Assembly: GCA_963826715.1 (NCBI GenBank)
Contig: CAWGYA010000008.1
Span: forward strand, 288,001-352,000
Length of the DNA stretch: 64,000 bases
Direction of reading: 5' to 3'
Origin: Candidatus Bathyarchaeota archaeon
GTDB lineage: Archaea; Thermoproteota; Bathyarchaeia; Bathyarchaeales; Bathycorpusculaceae
Position 1 is the first letter of the stretch. Every line of letters begins with the position of its first letter. Positions 31,199-42,604 of this stretch are shown here, one piece after another. The position numbers and the translations under genes were made by a program. The notes beneath the pieces were generated by a model that saw nothing but the letters and a program-made list of their open reading frames with translations, was not told where the DNA came from and did not search any database.

Positions 31199-33793
31199 AT
31201 GAGCTTCGCCAATTTTACAGTTAAATCCCAAGAAGCCATTCAAAAAACCTTGGAGATTGCCTCTTCAAAACAAAACCAAGCTATTGAACCAGTCCATCTT
31301 CTAAAGGCCATGCTTCTAGTAGATGACAATGTAATTCCTTATTTGCTAGGAAAGCTAAACGTAAACTTAGATACACTATCGAGTTCACTTGAGAAATTAA
31401 TTGACTCGTTACCTAAAGTCAGCGGTGGAGAACCCTACTTATCTTCCAATTCTAACAAAGCTCTGAAAAAAGCTCAGGAAATAGCTTCTGAAAGTCAAGA
31501 CAAATTTGTCTCTATAGAACAGATGTTTTTAGCAATCTTAACCGTAAACGATTCAGCTTCTAGAATACTTCAAAGTAGTGGAGTTACAGAAAAGGCACTT
31601 AAGGAAGCAATTAAGCAATTAAGAAAGGGATCAACTGTGAATTCGCAGACTACAGATGAAACTTACAACGCTCTAAACAGGTTTGCAACAAACCTCAACG
31701 ATAGAGCAAGAACAGGAAAACTGGACCCGGTAATCGGCAGAGATGAAGAAATCCGCAGAGTCCTACAAATCCTATCTAGGCGAACAAAAAATAACCCAAT
31801 TCTTATCGGTGAACCTGGCGTCGGCAAAACCGCCATTGCCGAAGGCATAGCTCATCGCATAGTGAACGGCGATGTTCCTGAAAATCTCAAGGAAAAACAA
31901 ATTTATTCATTAGACATGGGTGCCTTGATTGCCGGAGCAAAATATAAAGGCGAATTTGAGGAGCGACTCAAAAGTGTAGTTAAGGAAGTAGCTTCCTCAG
32001 AAGGCGAAATAGTGCTATTTATTGATGAAATCCACACTCTGGTAGGCGCTGGCGCCAGCGAAGGAGCTATGGACGCAGCCAACATCTTAAAACCAGCGTT
32101 AGCCAGAGGTGAACTACGTGCAATCGGTGCAACAACTCTCAAAGAATACCAAAAGTATTTTGAAAAAGACAAAGCACTGGAAAGACGTTTCCAGCCTGTC
32201 ATGGTTAACGAGCCCGACACGTTAGATGCAATCTCGATCCTTAGAGGCTTAAAAGAACGCTATGAAGTCTTCCACCACGTAAGAATAAAAGATGAAGCCA
32301 TAATCGCCGCAGTCGAACTTTCTCAGCGATACATCTCAGACAGGTTCCTTCCCGACAAAGCAATAGACTTGATAGATGAAGCCGCCTCAAAGCTCCGATT
32401 AGAAATCAACTCCGCACCTGTAGAACTCGAAACTATCGAGCGTAAAATTCGACAACTCGAAATCGAGCGGGAAGCCATAAAACGGGAAAAAGACGAAACC
32501 AAACTTAAAGCACTCAACCATGAAATCGCTAACCTTAGTGAAGAAAGAAATAAACTCAAAGCCCGCTGGCAAGCTGAAAAAGACATTGTCGAACAAATTC
32601 AATCCAAAAAAAATGAAATCGAAAAATTAAGATTCGAAGATGAAGATGCAAACCGCAAAGGAGAATTAGGAAAAATTGCAGAAATCAGGTACGGCAAAAT
32701 TCCTGAAGCTTCAAAAACCATCGAAGACCTAAAAAAGAAACTTTCCGAAATACAAAAGGGCTCTCCACTCATCAACGAAGAAGTTGACGCTGAAGAAATA
32801 GCAGAAGTAGTTTCGCATTGGACCGGAATCCCAGTCAGTAGAATGCTTCAAAGCGAAAAACAGAAGCTGCTTAACCTTGAAACCGAACTTCACATACGGG
32901 TAATCGGGCAGGATGAAGCGGTCCAAGCGGTCTCAGAAGCCATCAGACGAAGTCGCGCAGGGTTACAGGATCCCAAACGTCCCATAGGATCATTCATCTT
33001 TTTAGGCACCACCGGTGTAGGAAAAACTGAGTTAGCTAAAGCCTTGGCTGAATACCTCTTCAACAACGAAAACAATATGATTAGAATTGATATGTCTGAG
33101 TATCAGGAACGCCATACAGTTTCACGATTGGTAGGCGCTCCTCCAGGATACGTTGGATATGAAGAAAGTGGACAACTAACCGAGGCTGTACGTAGGAAAC
33201 CTTATGCTGTTGTTCTGCTTGACGAAATAGAAAAAGCGCACCCCGATGTTTTCAACATCTTACTCCAAGTCCTTGATGATGGTAGATTGACAGATAATAA
33301 AGGGCGCACAGTAGATTTCAAAAATACAATTATCATAATGACATCAAATCTTGGTTCACATCTCATACAGGAAAACCTAGAGAAAATAACACCGGATACA
33401 AGAGAAAAAATTTGGAACCAAACAAAAGAACAGGTATTTGACTTATTGAAAAAAACTATCAAACCAGAATTCCTAAATCGAATCGACGAAATAATAATGT
33501 TTCAACCGTTAAATGAGGAAGAAATCAAAAAAATAGTCAAAAACCAGATCAAAAACGTCCAGAAAATGCTTGAAAAAAATAATGTTAAAATTGACATCAC
33601 AAAGAAAGCCATAAACTACATCGCCAAAGTAGGGTTTGACCCCCAGTTCGGCGCACGACCAATAAAACGCGTGATCCAAAAAACCATTCTCAATGAACTC
33701 TCAAAGATAATACTAGAGGAGAAAGTCAACAAAGATGCAGTTATTGTGGTTGATGAGCAAAACGGATCGTTAGTGTTCAAAAATAAACCATAA
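31199..33793 (+). CDS. clpB: ATP-dependent disaggregase ClpB
   Basis: [21 protein letters not shown], coiled-coil M domain, [29 protein letters not shown]. Confidence 0.97.
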
Positions 33794-36601: not shown

Positions 36602-36760
36602 TTATTGAGATTTAGGAGGCGTGTCTTTGTTGATCCATGTTTTTATTGCTTCTTGGACCGCTTTGGATAAATCACCTTTTTTGCCTCCGAATCGTTCAAC
36701 GGTTTTTAGTCTTAGTTGCATTTCTATTTCATCTGTGATGTCAACATTGATGCGGCCCAA
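36602..36760 (-). CDS. Small ribbon-helix-helix DNA-binding protein (52 aa, absent from ORF track)
   Basis: Hand translation (TTG start) MGRINVDITDEIEMQLRLKTVERFGGKKGDLSKAVQEAIKTWINKDTPPKSQ; alternating beta strand then two helices with LSKAVQEAI..W. Confidence 0.8.
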   Translation of the reverse strand: MGRINVDITDEIEMQLRLKTVERFGGKKGDLSKAVQEAIKTWINKDTPPKSQ

Positions 36761-38871: not shown

Positions 38872-38996
38872 ACATCTCTTTTCCTTTTTTTATTGCCTGC
38901 CAAATCATTGATTCAATGTATAAACCTTTCATTAGAGGCAAAATAGTAGAAGTCAGCTTCTGGAAACTAAAACATAAAAGGACCGGGAATCCCGAC

Positions 38997-39032
38997 AAAG
39001 CATGTTTGAAGTGGACCGGGGGATTTGAACCC
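38997..39032 (-). repeat. Copy of tRNA-Ala 3' end and flank (att-like direct repeat)
   Basis: aaagcatgtttgaagtggaccgggggatttgaaccc nearly identical to 42172-42208. Confidence 0.88.
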
Positions 39033-39092
39033 AACTCTTAGTGGAGATATCACTCGGAGATTCACCATCATTGAAATTTTTGATCGCCTCAA

Positions 39093-40253
39093 TCATTCAA
39101 TCACTGCTGATCCGCCTTGCCATTGAGATATACGAAATATAACAAACTCAGCCGGCTTCACTGGAGCAACACCGATCAACATTATTAATCTTCCATTGTC
39201 TATATCATCTTGCGTCATTGTGTTACGATCGCATTTCACGAAAAAAGCTTGTTCTGAAGTTGTTCCCATAAGAGCCCCGTCTTTCCAGACAGTTATCAAA
39301 AATTGTGATACAGCTTGCTTTACCCTTGCCCAAAGTCGCTCATTATTAGGTTCAAAAACAACCCATTTGGTTCCCTCTTCAATCGATTCTTCAAGGTACA
39401 AAAACAAGCGCCGAAGGTTGATATATTTCCAAACGGGGTCATTTGAAGTTGTTCGAGCGCCCCACACACGGAAGCCTCGACCGCTAAATTCTCGCAAACA
39501 GTTTACCCCAAGAGGATTTAGAATTTCTTGTTGAGCTCGAGAGATTTGTTGTTCCGGACCGAGAACCCCTTCTATGACTTCATTGACTGGTGCTTTGTGA
39601 ACTCCGCGTTGCAAATCGTTTCGTGCGTAGATCCCACATATGTGTCCGCTGGGTGGGATGCACAAAATTTCTTCGGTATCAGGGTGCCGGATTTTTATCC
39701 ATGGATAATACAATGCAGCATACGATGAGTTGTATAGAGACCGCTGCGTCTGAATCGCGTCCAGACTTGCACATTTTTTTGAGTCAAGCACAGCAAACCG
39801 ATTCTTTAGGTTTTCACAATGCTCAATCATAGCATTATGAATTTTCTGGGTTATTCCACTAGGAATTGCTAAGATTTTGATTTCGTCAACTTGATTCAAC
39901 GCCCAAAGCCCAGTTCTCTGGCTTGGTTCACTGAAGTTTTTGCCTATAATAGTTTCATCGGAAACCACGCTATCTGTGGCTGTAACACGATTTATGTAGA
40001 CTCTTTGACCACCGTTCTGAAAAAACCCTTCGACAGCATGGGGCAAATAACGGTAATCACCATAACTTGTGTCCAAATAACCACCGAATAATCTTTGAAA
40101 TTCGGAAAAACTTGTAACAAGTGTGGGTTGGTTGAGTGGACCTTTCTGAGTTAAACCCACCATGCCTGTTGTACTTGTGCTTTTTCTTTCGATAGGTTTT
40201 GCACCTATTTCTATTTCTTCAATGTAAACTTTGGGTGACAAATATTCTGGAAT
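39093..40253 (-). CDS. Contractile tail sheath protein (eCIS Afp2/3/4-like)
   Basis: PEYLSPKVYIEE, VTSFSEFQRLFG, FFQNGG, AALYYPW, RGVHKAP, RVWGART, FEPN, GVAPVKPAEFVIFRI; family-type start position is ATT at 40253, first standard start is TTG 40241. Confidence 0.93.
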   Translation of the reverse strand: MPEYLSPKVYIEEIEIGAKPIERKSTSTTGMVGLTQKGPLNQPTLVTSFSEFQRLFGGYLDTSYGDYRYLPHAVEGFFQNGGQRVYINRVTATDSVVSDETIIGKNFSEPSQRTGLWALNQVDEIKILAIPSGITQKIHNAMIEHCENLKNRFAVLDSKKCASLDAIQTQRSLYNSSYAALYYPWIKIRHPDTEEILCIPPSGHICGIYARNDLQRGVHKAPVNEVIEGVLGPEQQISRAQQEILNPLGVNCLREFSGRGFRVWGARTTSNDPVWKYINLRRLFLYLEESIEEGTKWVVFEPNNERLWARVKQAVSQFLITVWKDGALMGTTSEQAFFVKCDRNTMTQDDIDNGRLIMLIGVAPVKPAEFVIFRISQWQGGSAVIE

Positions 40254-40300
40254 TGCCTATTCCTCTGGTTATGCTATGTGAGTTTTTCTTATAAAATGTA

Positions 40301-40314
40301 GCTTAAATTTAAGC
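40301..40314. promoter_or_regulatory. Perfect 14 bp palindrome in the divergent sheath/tube promoter region
   Basis: gcttaaatttaagc, next to TATA-like cttataaa. Confidence 0.35.
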
Positions 40315-40406
40315 GGGCGCTTTTAGAATCTGTCCCGATATCTTGGACTGTATTAATCGATAACGATAAATGTTAAACTACTCATAAAATATTGGGAGCT
40401 GATTTA

Positions 40407-40919
40407 ATGCCGGAGTTTAGTGTTAATGCAAATCGTTTTGATCCATACAAGAACTTTAAATTCAGAATTAAGTGGGATGGCAAATATGTCGCTGGTTTGA
40501 GCAAAATGTCAGCTTTAAAACGAACCACTGAGGTAGTTAAACATCGATCTGGTGGAGATCCAAGTTCAAGCAGAAAGTCTCCAGGTCGCACCGAGTATGA
40601 GGCAATCACTTTAGAACGTGGAGTCACTCATGATTTGGAGTTTGAAAACTGGGCTAACAAGGTATGGAACTTTGGTGCTGGATTGGGCGGTGAAGTATCC
40701 CTTAAGGATTTTCGCAAGGATATAATAATTGAAATCTACAATGAAGCAGGACAAATGGCAATAGCCTATAAAATTTATCGTTGTTGGGTTTCGGAATACC
40801 AAGCACTGCCAGAGTTAGATGCTAACTCAAACGCTGTTGCTATTCAGAGAATAAAGTTGGAAAATGAGGGTTGGGAAAGAGACACCGATGTCACTGAGCC
40901 CACTGAACCTTCAATTTAG
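40407..40919 (+). CDS. Tail tube protein (T4 gp19 / Afp1/5-like)
   Basis: RFDPYKNFKFR, KSPGRTEYEAITLERGVT, FRKDIII, RCWVSEYQALPELDAN; ATG 40407 follows gggagctga. Confidence 0.93.
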   Translation: MPEFSVNANRFDPYKNFKFRIKWDGKYVAGLSKMSALKRTTEVVKHRSGGDPSSSRKSPGRTEYEAITLERGVTHDLEFENWANKVWNFGAGLGGEVSLKDFRKDIIIEIYNEAGQMAIAYKIYRCWVSEYQALPELDANSNAVAIQRIKLENEGWERDTDVTEPTEPSI

Positions 40920-40955
40920 CCTTCAATTTTCCGGTTAATTCTGGAGAATGCCTTC

Positions 40956-42104
40956 TTGGTTCCACTAATTTCAAGCCGATCCAAAACTGTTAAAGGAGCG
41001 TTAGTTTTAGACAGGTCTACTTCAAAGTCTTCCGTCGACGATCTTGATCCTCTGAGCTTTATTTTTCAATACAATCCTGAGATACTCACTCACACGTTTT
41101 TCTCTTCAGACTGCGAAGAAGTAGCAAGGCAGGAAAAGGGGCAGAGAGCTAAAGGCAAAATCGTTGAATCAATAAACTTGAACTTAGAACTCGATGCAAT
41201 CGATCCGCTTATACAACCAAATCTACACCAAGAAATTGATGAATATGGCCTTCATCCAAGCCTCGCCATTCTTGAATCAATCATGCTCTCTCAAAACGCC
41301 ACATCATCTATTGTTCTCTTTACGTGGGGTCCCAATCGGTCAATTCCTGTTTCAATAGAAAACATGAGAATTTTAGAGGAGGCTTTTGATATCAAGCTAA
41401 ACCCAATTCGGGCAAAGATTGAACTTGCTATGAGAGTACTTGATATCTCGGAATTTAGAAAAGGTTCAAAGGGTTACACCCTTTGTCTACTTCACTCAGA
41501 TCGAAGAAATTTCTTCATAAAAAAACGCGTCTACGGAAGTCCATTCAATATGTCATTTGCGACAAAAATTGTTCCTCAACACAGCTGGAAAGATTTAGTT
41601 ATACACGTTAATAAGAAAGAACAAATACGCAAAATATGCAATTACGCAAAAAATAACCCTAAAACTTCTGAAACTCGGGGCTTTGACAAACACTCTCAAC
41701 GAAAGGGTCTCAATATTCTGTTTTTAGGTCCATCTGAGTCTGGAAAAACTATGGTGGCTGAAGTCATCGCCAGTGAATTGAAACTTGATTTGTTCAAAAT
41801 TGATCTTTCGAGGGTTGTCAGTAAGTATATTGGGGAGACAGAGAAGAATCTGAATAGAATTTTTAAAGATTCAGAAGATTCTGATGCAGTTCTGTTTTTC
41901 GACGAAGCTGATGCTTTATTCGGGAAAAGTAGTGAAGCAAAAGATACTCATGACAGGTATGACAATATTGAAGTCAACTATTTGCTACATAAATTGGACG
42001 AACACCAAGGAATCGTTATTCTCGCCAGCCGGGGGAAAGTTGAGGAAGCATTCGTGAAACGGATGAATTTCATCGTAGAGTTTCCATCTCTAAACGGAAA
42101 TTAA
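40956..42104 (+). CDS. Fusion of CIS tube-initiator-like domain and Afp15-like AAA+ ATPase core
   Basis: N-term FQYNPE...LFTWG...EEAFD.KLNPIRAKIEL; C-term SWKDLV, GPSESGKT, IDLSRVVSKYIGETEKNL, LFFDEADALFGK, HDRY.NIEVNYLL. Confidence 0.82.
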   Translation: MVPLISSRSKTVKGALVLDRSTSKSSVDDLDPLSFIFQYNPEILTHTFFSSDCEEVARQEKGQRAKGKIVESINLNLELDAIDPLIQPNLHQEIDEYGLHPSLAILESIMLSQNATSSIVLFTWGPNRSIPVSIENMRILEEAFDIKLNPIRAKIELAMRVLDISEFRKGSKGYTLCLLHSDRRNFFIKKRVYGSPFNMSFATKIVPQHSWKDLVIHVNKKEQIRKICNYAKNNPKTSETRGFDKHSQRKGLNILFLGPSESGKTMVAEVIASELKLDLFKIDLSRVVSKYIGETEKNLNRIFKDSEDSDAVLFFDEADALFGKSSEAKDTHDRYDNIEVNYLLHKLDEHQGIVILASRGKVEEAFVKRMNFIVEFPSLNGN

Positions 42105-42185
42105 CCCTCGAGATAATTTTTCCTTAGCTAATGGGGAATTAGCCTTGCAAAATAGGACTGGGGTTTGTTGAAAAGCATGTTGAAG

Positions 42186-42259
42186 TGGACCGGGGGGGAT
42201 TTGAACCCCCGACCTCTTGAGTGCAAGTCAAGCGTTCATACCAGCTGAACTACCGGCCC
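42186..42259 (-). tRNA. tRNA-Ala(TGC)
   Basis: Cloverleaf GGGCCGG...CCGGTCC-A with G3:U70, anticodon arm CTTGA-CTTGCAC-TCAAG, T loop TTCAAAT; intronless, CCA not encoded. Confidence 0.96.
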
Positions 42260-42604
42260 GTGCTTGCCAATTGATGCATCTCTTTGATATTTAGGTTTTG
42301 CCACCAAAAATCTCAACACATGCAAAATTCAGGGGATAAACAAATAAAAAAAGAAAATTAGTCGTTAAGGTTTGTTGGTTTAGTTCGGTTTTTTGGGTGT
42401 CACGGAAGCGCTTCTCTCATCGTATTTGCCTCAGAAAACTTTCTATTGGGATCAAGTTTGAATGGAGCCGCCTTCTATATCATTGAATAGAAAACTTGTA
42501 CGAAATTTTTTGCAGCCTTGCTGGAATAGGATTATTAATAGAACCCAAGGTTGATTTTAAAACGTTATATCCCAAAATGTATCCAATATGTTGGGAGACA
42601 AAAC

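Follow-up and report, generated by a model that had tools for sequence, protein, structure and literature searches.

How can the genes for a contractile sheath and its tube be kept in a genome in which no baseplate is found? This question is raised by a three-gene cassette in a 64,000-nucleotide stretch of Candidatus Bathyarchaeota archaeon DNA (the window, G000:C8:288001-352000), which encodes a compact sheath, a tail tube, and a fusion of a tube-initiator domain to an AAA core (Table 1). The source genome, G000, is 2.64 Mb in 8 contigs and 96% complete, and it belongs to a genus survey set of 120 species genomes that also includes G115, G124, G103, G012, G014, G029, G108, and G118. The sheath and tube genes are divergent, and the 3.08-kb block occupies the whole interval between a tRNA-Ala gene and its repeat. 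A first-pass annotation of the window had proposed these three genes and this arrangement; the open frames, the Pfam, profile, and fold identities, and the coordinates agree with it. Both cassette junctions are bridged without differences by short-read soil contigs (X1 record 2, 38937-39688; X1 record 7, 41764-42261), so the layout is not an assembly artifact. The 6 sequencing runs listed for the cassette are all soil or wetland DNA. Our reading is that the cassette is a selected, mobile, and reduced derivative of a contractile injection system (CIS) that assembles a baseplate-independent sheathed tube, and we give this reading roughly one chance in two.

The same cassette is present in G115, where it matches window positions 39058-42131 with 92.8% nucleotide identity over 3082 nt. 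Selection was measured between the G000 and G115 copies as the ratio of nonsynonymous to synonymous substitution rates (dN/dS), with a binomial p against the neutral expectation. The ratio was 0.156 for the sheath (p 4.8e-15), 0.093 for the tube (p 1.1e-5), and 0.443 for the fusion (p 8.3e-4). The 2,817 coding columns contain 191 substitutions, no stop, no frameshift, and one in-frame 6-nt indel. The only non-triplet indels of the cassette, three of a single base each, all fall in the 167-column intergenic region together with 11 substitutions. A layout unique to this assembly with dN/dS near 1, the outcome that the first-pass annotation had set against a retained module, does not hold: the layout recurs, and all three genes are below the neutral expectation. 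These data show that the cassette genes have been under purifying selection since the G000 and G115 cassettes diverged. In contrast to the intact cassette, a separate extracellular CIS (eCIS) locus in G115 (C9:43465-65317; L051, L052) has decayed. The Baseplate_J homologue there is broken into 8 pieces with stops and the hub into 3, the tube has 3 stops, and the 121-residue small gene is split; a 550-residue sheath and a Pvc16_N gene are still open. The constrained ratios, the lack of frameshifts, and the broken eCIS beside an intact cassette reject a neutrally decaying relic, one of the options first considered, for the time since the cassettes diverged. With the conserved fusion family described below, they favor the retention for which the first-pass annotation had mildly argued.

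The cassette has diverged far less than its hosts. Synonymous divergence (dS) between the G000 and G115 cassettes is 0.14-0.25. Among seven flanking orthologues of the two genomes, dS is above 1 or saturated in six (proportion of synonymous differences 0.57-0.83), and Alba is at 0.66. The cassette is therefore much younger than the host split, which points to its recent horizontal transfer as one unit between species. The flanks of the G115 cassette are unrelated to those in G000. G124 and G103 have a tube together with the same fusion (64% amino acid identity, 391 residues), and their sheath (85-86% identity) lies away from this pair, 50 kb off or on another contig. Neither the horizontal mobility nor the genus-wide pattern of reduced sets is foreseen in the first-pass annotation.

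The G000 cassette lies at a tRNA-Ala(TGC) gene. An exact 17-nt direct repeat (39006-39022 and 42180-42196), for which our own arithmetic gives a chance expectation of about 0.002 in 9 kb, can be followed by eye over some 50 nt, interrupted by three small gaps, and takes in the 3' part of the tRNA. Direct repeats from a tRNA 3' end are what a tRNA-integrated island is expected to have. Neither the 3.1-kb interval nor the 4.6 kb on its left was found to contain an integrase or another mobility gene. The interval between ORF189 and tRNA-Ala holds 5 kb of other DNA in G115, and G103 and G124 each carry, immediately after their ORF189 homologue, a fragment that resembles window 38996-39056. In G124 (L068, G124:C5:242000-260000), this fragment and tRNA-Ala bracket about 17.5 kb in which a 425-residue tyrosine integrase (Phage_integrase 2.4e-24) adjoins the tRNA and which also holds genes for surface proteins and for an ABC/FecCD iron-type transporter. 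In G103 the fragment occurs twice, at an interval of 2.7 kb (L059 4849-4908, 7537-7584). G000 itself encodes a 55% homologue of the G124 island integrase (G000:C7:102285-103550, by tblastn). The tRNA-Ala(TGC) site is an integration hotspot, and the cassette sits in an integrase-less islet. It resembles tRNA-targeting islands with a tyrosine integrase in lying between a tRNA 3'-fragment repeat and an intact tRNA-Ala, as the G124 island does, but its interval has no integrase and the G115 cassette is away from any tRNA.

Partners for the cassette were sought in the whole G000 genome, window included. Baseplate_J, GPW_gp25, Phage_base_V, and Pvc16_N had 0 matches, and there is one sheath and one tube only. 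A tblastn search with all open reading frames (ORFs) of at least 60 residues from the eCIS loci of G029, G108, G118, and G115-C9 recovered the three module genes and one small ORF on C2. Baseplate wedge, spike, cap, and tape-measure genes are thus not detectable in G000 by these Pfam and tblastn searches; the lack of baseplate, spike, and cap genes first noticed in the window extends to the genome. With three genes, the locus is outside the definition of an eCIS gene cluster, which calls for 10 or more core genes, the spike Afp8 and the baseplate protein Afp11 among them.

Two stray pieces of eCIS were found elsewhere in G000. The small ORF (G000:C2:350964-351317, 117 residues, no Pfam family) is 74-80% identical to the 121-residue gene that G108 and G118 have directly behind the tube of their full eCIS loci, and its C terminus is altered, the CPNC zinc-ribbon-like end being gone. 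The 121-residue gene occurs in only 5 of the 120 genomes and is broken in G115 and G120. The other piece, at C6:31835 (region 31835-32206), is the first ~40 residues of a mini-hub. Mini-hubs (218-222 residues, no Pfam family) are related to the two ends of the 359-residue gpD/VgrG-like hub of G108; they match in 26 of the 120 genomes, with about 13 full-length open frames that include those of G124, G103, and the closed genome G014. The first-pass annotation had allowed that a complete eCIS or provirus elsewhere might be the source of the three genes; no eCIS was found beyond these two fragments. G000 has 7 Terminase_6N matches over the cut-off and two HK97-type capsid genes. The two proviral regions examined (C7:~122000-144000 and C5:~158000-178000; L069-L072) contain a terminase, an HK97-type capsid, their own Phage_tube_2 tube, YQBQ-like hub proteins, and no sheath, and membership of the cassette in a provirus was rejected on these two of the seven terminase regions. 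One tail protein of the tailed-virus-like regions carries a GH5 cellulase domain, and the C5 region is interrupted by a 1025-residue CheB/CheR/histidine-kinase gene. A family of paralogous 840-990-residue predicted surface proteins (signal peptide, beta-propeller-like repeats, and C-terminal membrane anchor, by eye; L028, L029, L036) occupies G000:C2:342900-349117 and at least five other G000 loci. At two loci of G012, and also in G029, its members flank pieces of CIS, and in G000 they lie 2 kb from the stray 117-residue ORF, an adjacency that may reflect variable regions only.

Reduced sets of these genes form a genus-wide pattern. Sheath was found in 47 of the 120 genomes, tube in 53, Pvc16_N in 42, and Baseplate_J in 9; absence in these counts means no match with the queries used, and the counts ignore shared ancestry. 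Sheath and tube occur together in 40 genomes, 34 of them without Baseplate_J, and complete eCIS loci were found in G029, G108, and G118. Seventeen genomes combine a sheath, a tube, and an initiator-like gene and match neither Baseplate_J nor Pvc16_N. In 15 genomes, sheath and tube occur without an initiator-like gene, and 14 of these have Pvc16_N. No sheath homologue was found in 24 genomes from other families of the order. The genes of a set are often dispersed: in G014, whose genome is closed, about 0.5 Mb separates the sheath (2.09 Mb) from the tube-initiator pair (2.60 Mb). A 360-residue 'solo' sheath lies in conserved synteny in at least six genomes, and the flanks of its locus map to two contigs in G000. 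Such dispersed genes have dN/dS values of 0.09-0.12 for the solo sheath (4 of 10 pairs computable), 0.04-0.10 for the tube (8 of 10 pairs), and 0.13-0.19 for the initiator-like genes (5 of 10 pairs). A second reduced flavor consists of a short tube gene immediately followed by a ~200-residue Pvc16_N (cap/terminator) gene, and stand-alone ~300-residue Pvc16_N proteins occur also in genomes without sheath or tube. The solo sheath that G012 has at the syntenic place is a pseudogene, present as fragments with a TAA stop (L030:9822-10474, C5), and C13 carries an intact 382-residue sheath (84% identical to that of the window) followed by a 150-residue tube. This looks like the replacement of one sheath by another.

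The sheath and the gp19-type tube place the cassette in the CIS lineage. Their Pfam matches are above the cut-offs, and their best PDB relatives are CIS sheaths and tubes. The nearest solved sheath relative is 9ezm_A (E 2.2e-119), matched in two stretches. The sheath is 84-92% identical to those of G115, G124, G103, and G012, and its dN/dS across the genomic comparisons is 0.16-0.25. The compact 382-residue sheaths form one clade (support 100/100), which groups with the long eCIS-type sheaths of G108, G118, and G115-C9 and with the solo-sheath clade in a branching order that the tree leaves open; the eCIS sheath of G029-C2 falls outside this group. The tube has its PDB relatives in the corresponding chains of AlgoCIS, the Anabaena CIS, and Afp1. 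The tube is 97% identical to that of G115 and 82% identical to that of the complete G029 eCIS, with dN/dS values of 0.09-0.15. Its start is probably ATG 40407 (170 residues), which is preceded by GGGAG, and not TTG 40392, which is CTG in G115.

The N-terminal half of the fusion had been called an initiator, and profile and fold comparisons support the call. The CIS_tube match at residues 30-159 (4.7e-4, 20.4 bits) is under the curated cut-off of 27 bits (PF19266). A profile made from the N-terminal half and nine homologues matches five PDB sequences, all from CIS entries, with E values of 8.5e-6 for 9rce_H (best), 0.0048 for Afp7 (6rao_G), and 0.13 for Pvc7 (6j0n_b); All3321 (7b5h_AK) is also matched. 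An AlphaFold2 model of this half (pLDDT 72.8, pTM 0.70) gave a tube-initiator fold: the first seven Foldseek matches all come from CIS baseplate structures, with 7b5h_AK, 6j0n_b, and 6rao_G among the chains (E 2.5e-7 to 3.7e-6, moderate TM scores of 0.42-0.51), and phage baseplate-initiator chains come next. Chains of 9gtp, from the Streptomyces system CISSc, are among the fold and profile matches. Foldseek with the full-length model returned AAA+ ATPases only. Alignment of the profile with a single canonical Cis7 by hhalign reached 7% probability, with the F-WG...P-RA motif aligned, and is not used as support. The canonical Cis7 of the full G108 eCIS has CIS_tube (1.4e-31) and LysM; Pfam finds no LysM in the fusion, where the AAA core stands in its position. 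A predicted tube-initiator complex scored 0.35 compared to 0.00 for the best control, with at least 82% of contacts agreeing between runs and a partner pLDDT of at least 77. Of 80 solved complexes, 58 attained that mark, as did 2 of 110 mismatched pairs; at 0.60 or under, those attaining it were only 7 of the 80, together with both mismatches. The model lends weak support to a contact between tube and initiator, and since solved Afp7-tube complexes exist, it may reflect likeness and not binding.

The C-terminal half matches p97/Cdc48/Vps4 in the PDB and is 50-67% identical to the AAA domain of the 648-699-residue eCIS ATPases of G029, G108, and G118. The G000 copy has a P-loop core with Walker A (GPSESGKT), Walker B (DEAD), and the pore-loop KYIG, and KYIG is invariant across the four genomic fusion copies. 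The full eCIS ATPases of the genus have a winged-helix domain and a lid. In the G000 fusion, alignments show neither a C-terminal lid nor the sensor-1 Asn, and no N-terminal winged-helix domain was matched. The protein ends at ...EFPSLNGN, where relatives run ~85 residues further into the lid, and a 2-codon deletion has removed the sensor-1 Asn (ILASR--GK in place of ILATNxxxK). The relatives found first matched one half of the fusion or the other only. A search of 5.8 billion proteins, of which the best 120 matches were considered, gave 8 full-length fusion clusters at 89-100% of the query length. All 8 stop before the AAA lid, at ...EFPSPNG[DN] or, in P0004, at ...DFSSPNRD. A deletion in this assembly alone, joining an initiator gene to an eCIS ATPase gene, was rejected as the origin of the fusion because full-length orthologues occur in G115, G124, G103, and four further protein clusters from metagenomes (P0003-P0005, P0008). 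An initiator-like gene is present in 34 of the 120 genomes, and only 4 have the fusion as a 393-396-residue open frame.

Catalytic motifs, read by eye from alignments, deviate in 7 of the 8 family members. Walker A is altered in G115 (NPSESGKT), G124 (GSSGAAKS), G103 (GSSGVAKL), P0003 (DPSNSGKT), and P0008 (GPSKSQKT), Walker B in P0004 (EEAD), and sensor 1 in G000. The loss of the lid and the drift of the catalytic motifs argue against an active unfoldase, and the view in the first-pass annotation that the module has its own remodelling ATPase is doubtful. Other joined or separated forms were seen. A free-standing 196-residue lid-less AAA (Walker A GPSEADKK) adjoins the tube gene in G002. In metagenomic proteins, an eCIS-type AAA with its lid is fused to gp25 (P0018, P0099), Pvc16_N (P0031), a whole sheath (P0102, labelled Candidatus Bathyarchaeum), or DUF6760 (P0011). 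Fusion of the ATPase to structural proteins may be a recurrent theme.

Table 1. Coordinates of the cassette, its repeats, and related gene copies in other genomes (window positions unless a genome or locus is given).
Feature	Position	Strand	Evidence or remark
Left att-like repeat	39000-39037		Degenerate tRNA-Ala 3' fragment and a few bases of downstream flank
Compact one-domain contractile sheath, 382 residues	39093-40241	-	Phage_sheath_1 9e-23, Phage_sheath_1C 1.3e-19
Divergent intergenic control region	40242-40406		A/T-rich; TATA-like boxes and GGAG-like motifs, by eye
gp19/Afp1-type tail tube, 175 residues as listed	40392-40919	+	Pfam Phage_T4_gp19 6.8e-46
Fusion protein (initiator and AAA), 382 residues	40956-42104	+	AAA 5.2e-23 (residues 254-377)
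Fusion N-terminal half, Afp7/Pvc7/Cis7-like tube-initiator domain without LysM	40956-41540	+	Profile and fold
Fusion C-terminal half, classical-clade AAA+ P-loop core of eCIS ATPase type	41541-42104	+	Pfam, PDB matches
tRNA-Ala(TGC)	42185-42259	-	ARAGORN; Rfam 70.7 bits; right repeat copy 42176-42215
Mini-hub copy	L065:4719-5387
Mini-hub copy	L067:4659-5315
Tube and Pvc16_N pair	G091:C1:976733-977699
Tube and Pvc16_N pair	G081:C1:86130-87089
Tube and Pvc16_N pair	G008:C13:134504-135467

The DNA neighboring the cassette had been described as decayed. Short ORFs with weak or no Pfam matches are all that was found to its left, in window 34.4-39.0 kb, with no pseudogene demonstrated. This gene-poor stretch contains a 52-residue RHH_6 protein (2.4e-6; 36602-36760, minus strand), and the segment 36483-36920 recurs at several places in G103, G115, G012, and G029 (76-82% nucleotide identity).

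How the cassette products assemble and function is what we infer from their sequences. The fusion protein would form a hexameric ring, with the AAA core serving mainly as a nucleotide-binding oligomerization scaffold and not as an unfoldase. This ring would display a ring of initiator domains that nucleates tube polymerization, and the sheath would assemble round the tube. The product would be an intracellular sheathed tube, spike-less and independent of a baseplate, for which structural, stress-related, or virus-related roles are candidates. Without a gp25-type sheath initiator, the filament may not even be contractile.

A number of points weigh against a baseplate-independent tube. Sheath proteins without a baseplate tend to form contracted polysheaths. 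A baseplate protein that has diverged very far may escape Pfam and BLAST, and the assembly may lack 4% of the genome. The two stray remnants in G000 mean that eCIS decay did occur in the lineage. The low dN/dS of a mobile cassette also fits selection in another host or element, and the genus-level co-occurrence (Fisher p 2e-13) ignores shared ancestry. The fusion is the least constrained cassette gene (dN/dS 0.27-0.48), and the altered catalytic motifs of its family could mean slow decay and not a scaffold role. The annotated TTG start of the sheath (window 40241) is TTA in G115 (L046 10131), and the true start is therefore uncertain; an in-frame ATT four codons upstream of the TTG is preceded by a GAGGA motif at good spacing. 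In characterized systems, the sheath-tube is built on a baseplate and the device is tipped by a spike (PMC11566945).

Decay is one rival. The cassette could be a functionless fragment of a former full eCIS or integrated element whose frames are still open by chance, as the lack of a baseplate, spike, or cap partner in G000, the integrase-less islet, the eCIS remnants elsewhere in the genome, the degenerate lid-less AAA, and the dN/dS of 0.44 for the fusion against G115 might suggest. We consider this quite unlikely. Neutrality is rejected for all three genes, including the fusion, and the 191 coding substitutions brought no stop and the 2,817 coding columns no frameshift, compared to 3 single-base indels within the 167 intergenic columns. 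Eight protein clusters share the truncated architecture of the fusion, it is the true eCIS locus of G115 that has decayed and not the cassette, and at dS above 1 the dispersed counterparts show purifying selection too.

Selection could also come from a partner. The cassette might be a satellite that supplies sheath, tube, and initiator to the baseplate or head of an eCIS or tailed virus, in the same cell or on co-infection, and owe its constraint to that partnership. It is horizontally mobile and occupies an att-like site with no integrase of its own, complete eCIS with related parts exist in the genus (G029, G108, G118; the window tube is 82% identical to that of G029), G115 holds both a cassette and an eCIS locus, and G000 has terminases and HK97-type capsids. 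The satellite option, raised in the first-pass annotation, is nevertheless unsupported in G000, which has no eCIS and whose two examined proviral regions have non-contractile-type Phage_tube_2 tubes and hub-like proteins of their own with no sheath. The eCIS of G115 is broken, and the trio is kept in 17 of the 120 genomes without a detectable Baseplate_J or Pvc16_N cap. We regard a satellite as unlikely. Very unlikely, in our estimate, is a defense by assembly interference, in which the tail parts and a crippled AAA-initiator would poison the tails of incoming contractile-tailed viruses, or foreign CIS, by co-assembling with them. Such a role could be reconciled with purifying selection in the absence of a baseplate, with mobility and an island location, with catalytic motifs that degenerate while the fold and the pore-loop KYIG are conserved, and with replacement dynamics such as the pseudogenized solo sheath of G012 beside a second sheath-tube pair. 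Against it, the trio is retained as a matched set, as a self-assembling structure needs, no sign of a defense family came to light, though no search was aimed at one, and we know of no precedent for this kind of defense.

If a matched set is truly kept and spread without a baseplate, then these archaea either have a second, baseplate-independent assembly route and a function other than injection, or they use a baseplate too divergent to recognize. A wider account can be drawn from the reading of the cassette as a baseplate-independent sheathed tube, and it is tentative and, taken jointly, doubtful. It supposes that a soil Bathyarchaeota genus domesticated a contractile tail into a baseplate-less intracellular filament system, for which a sheath, a tube, and one end-piece, either an Afp7-like initiator or a Pvc16-like terminator, might suffice. 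In four species, a pseudo-AAA ring fused to the initiator would take the place of the baseplate hub in nucleation. The genes would be scattered or packed in a 3-kb cassette that hops between species via tRNA-Ala islands, and the window cassette would be the most compact self-sufficient form. As a candidate for a minimal nucleator, an initiator joined to a lid-less AAA core is simple and can be tested.

We found no description of a three-gene module, an initiator-AAA fusion, or a CIS in Bathyarchaeia in the literature, although the supplements of eCIS catalogues might list such loci. The only related mention found, in PMC9230969, is that one-domain sheath homologues occur in Bathyarchaeota metagenome-assembled genomes. 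The nearest solved relative of the cassette sheath comes from another archaeal system with a sheath-tube core, the CIS, or type VI-like system, of Halogeometricum borinquense, with whose paper 9EZM was deposited (PMC11566945). According to that paper, the haloarchaeal cluster comprises cis1-16 and assembles on a membrane-anchored baseplate. The H. borinquense sheath has 574 residues and an extra domain, whereas the cassette sheath has 382 residues and is matched in two stretches, and no baseplate, spike, cap, or full ATPase was found for the cassette.

The T6SS (type VI secretion system) with ClpV likewise combines a sheath, a tube, and an AAA+ protein in one system and is the basis of the 'remodelling ATPase' idea. 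The T6SS needs a baseplate and a membrane complex, and ClpV is a separate double-ring Clp/Hsp100 unfoldase that binds the contracted sheath. The cassette has instead a single lid-less AAA core that is fused to a tube initiator and whose catalytic motifs are not conserved.

The eCIS group (Afp of Serratia, PVC of Photorhabdus, AlgoCIS, and the Anabaena tCIS) has parts in common with the cassette. The tube and sheath families are the same, the initiator half matches Afp7, Pvc7, and All3321 by profile and fold, and the AAA core is of the type found in the full-locus eCIS ATPases of the genus. Afp7-type proteins carry LysM, in contrast to the AAA core of the cassette fusion, and Pvc15 is an ATPase in a protein of its own, which payload loading requires (PMC10097599). 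PMC8213781 describes eCIS operons of 15-28 genes, catalogues that require at least 10 core genes, and co-occurrence of Afp8 and Afp11 in 98.7% of loci. Surveys that require ~10 core genes discard modules like this one by design, and the size of the class may therefore be underestimated. CISSc of Streptomyces differs from the cassette module in having a solved baseplate complex (9gtp title), and it provides (PMC10066040, PMC10020575) a precedent for a CIS that acts inside the cell that produces it.

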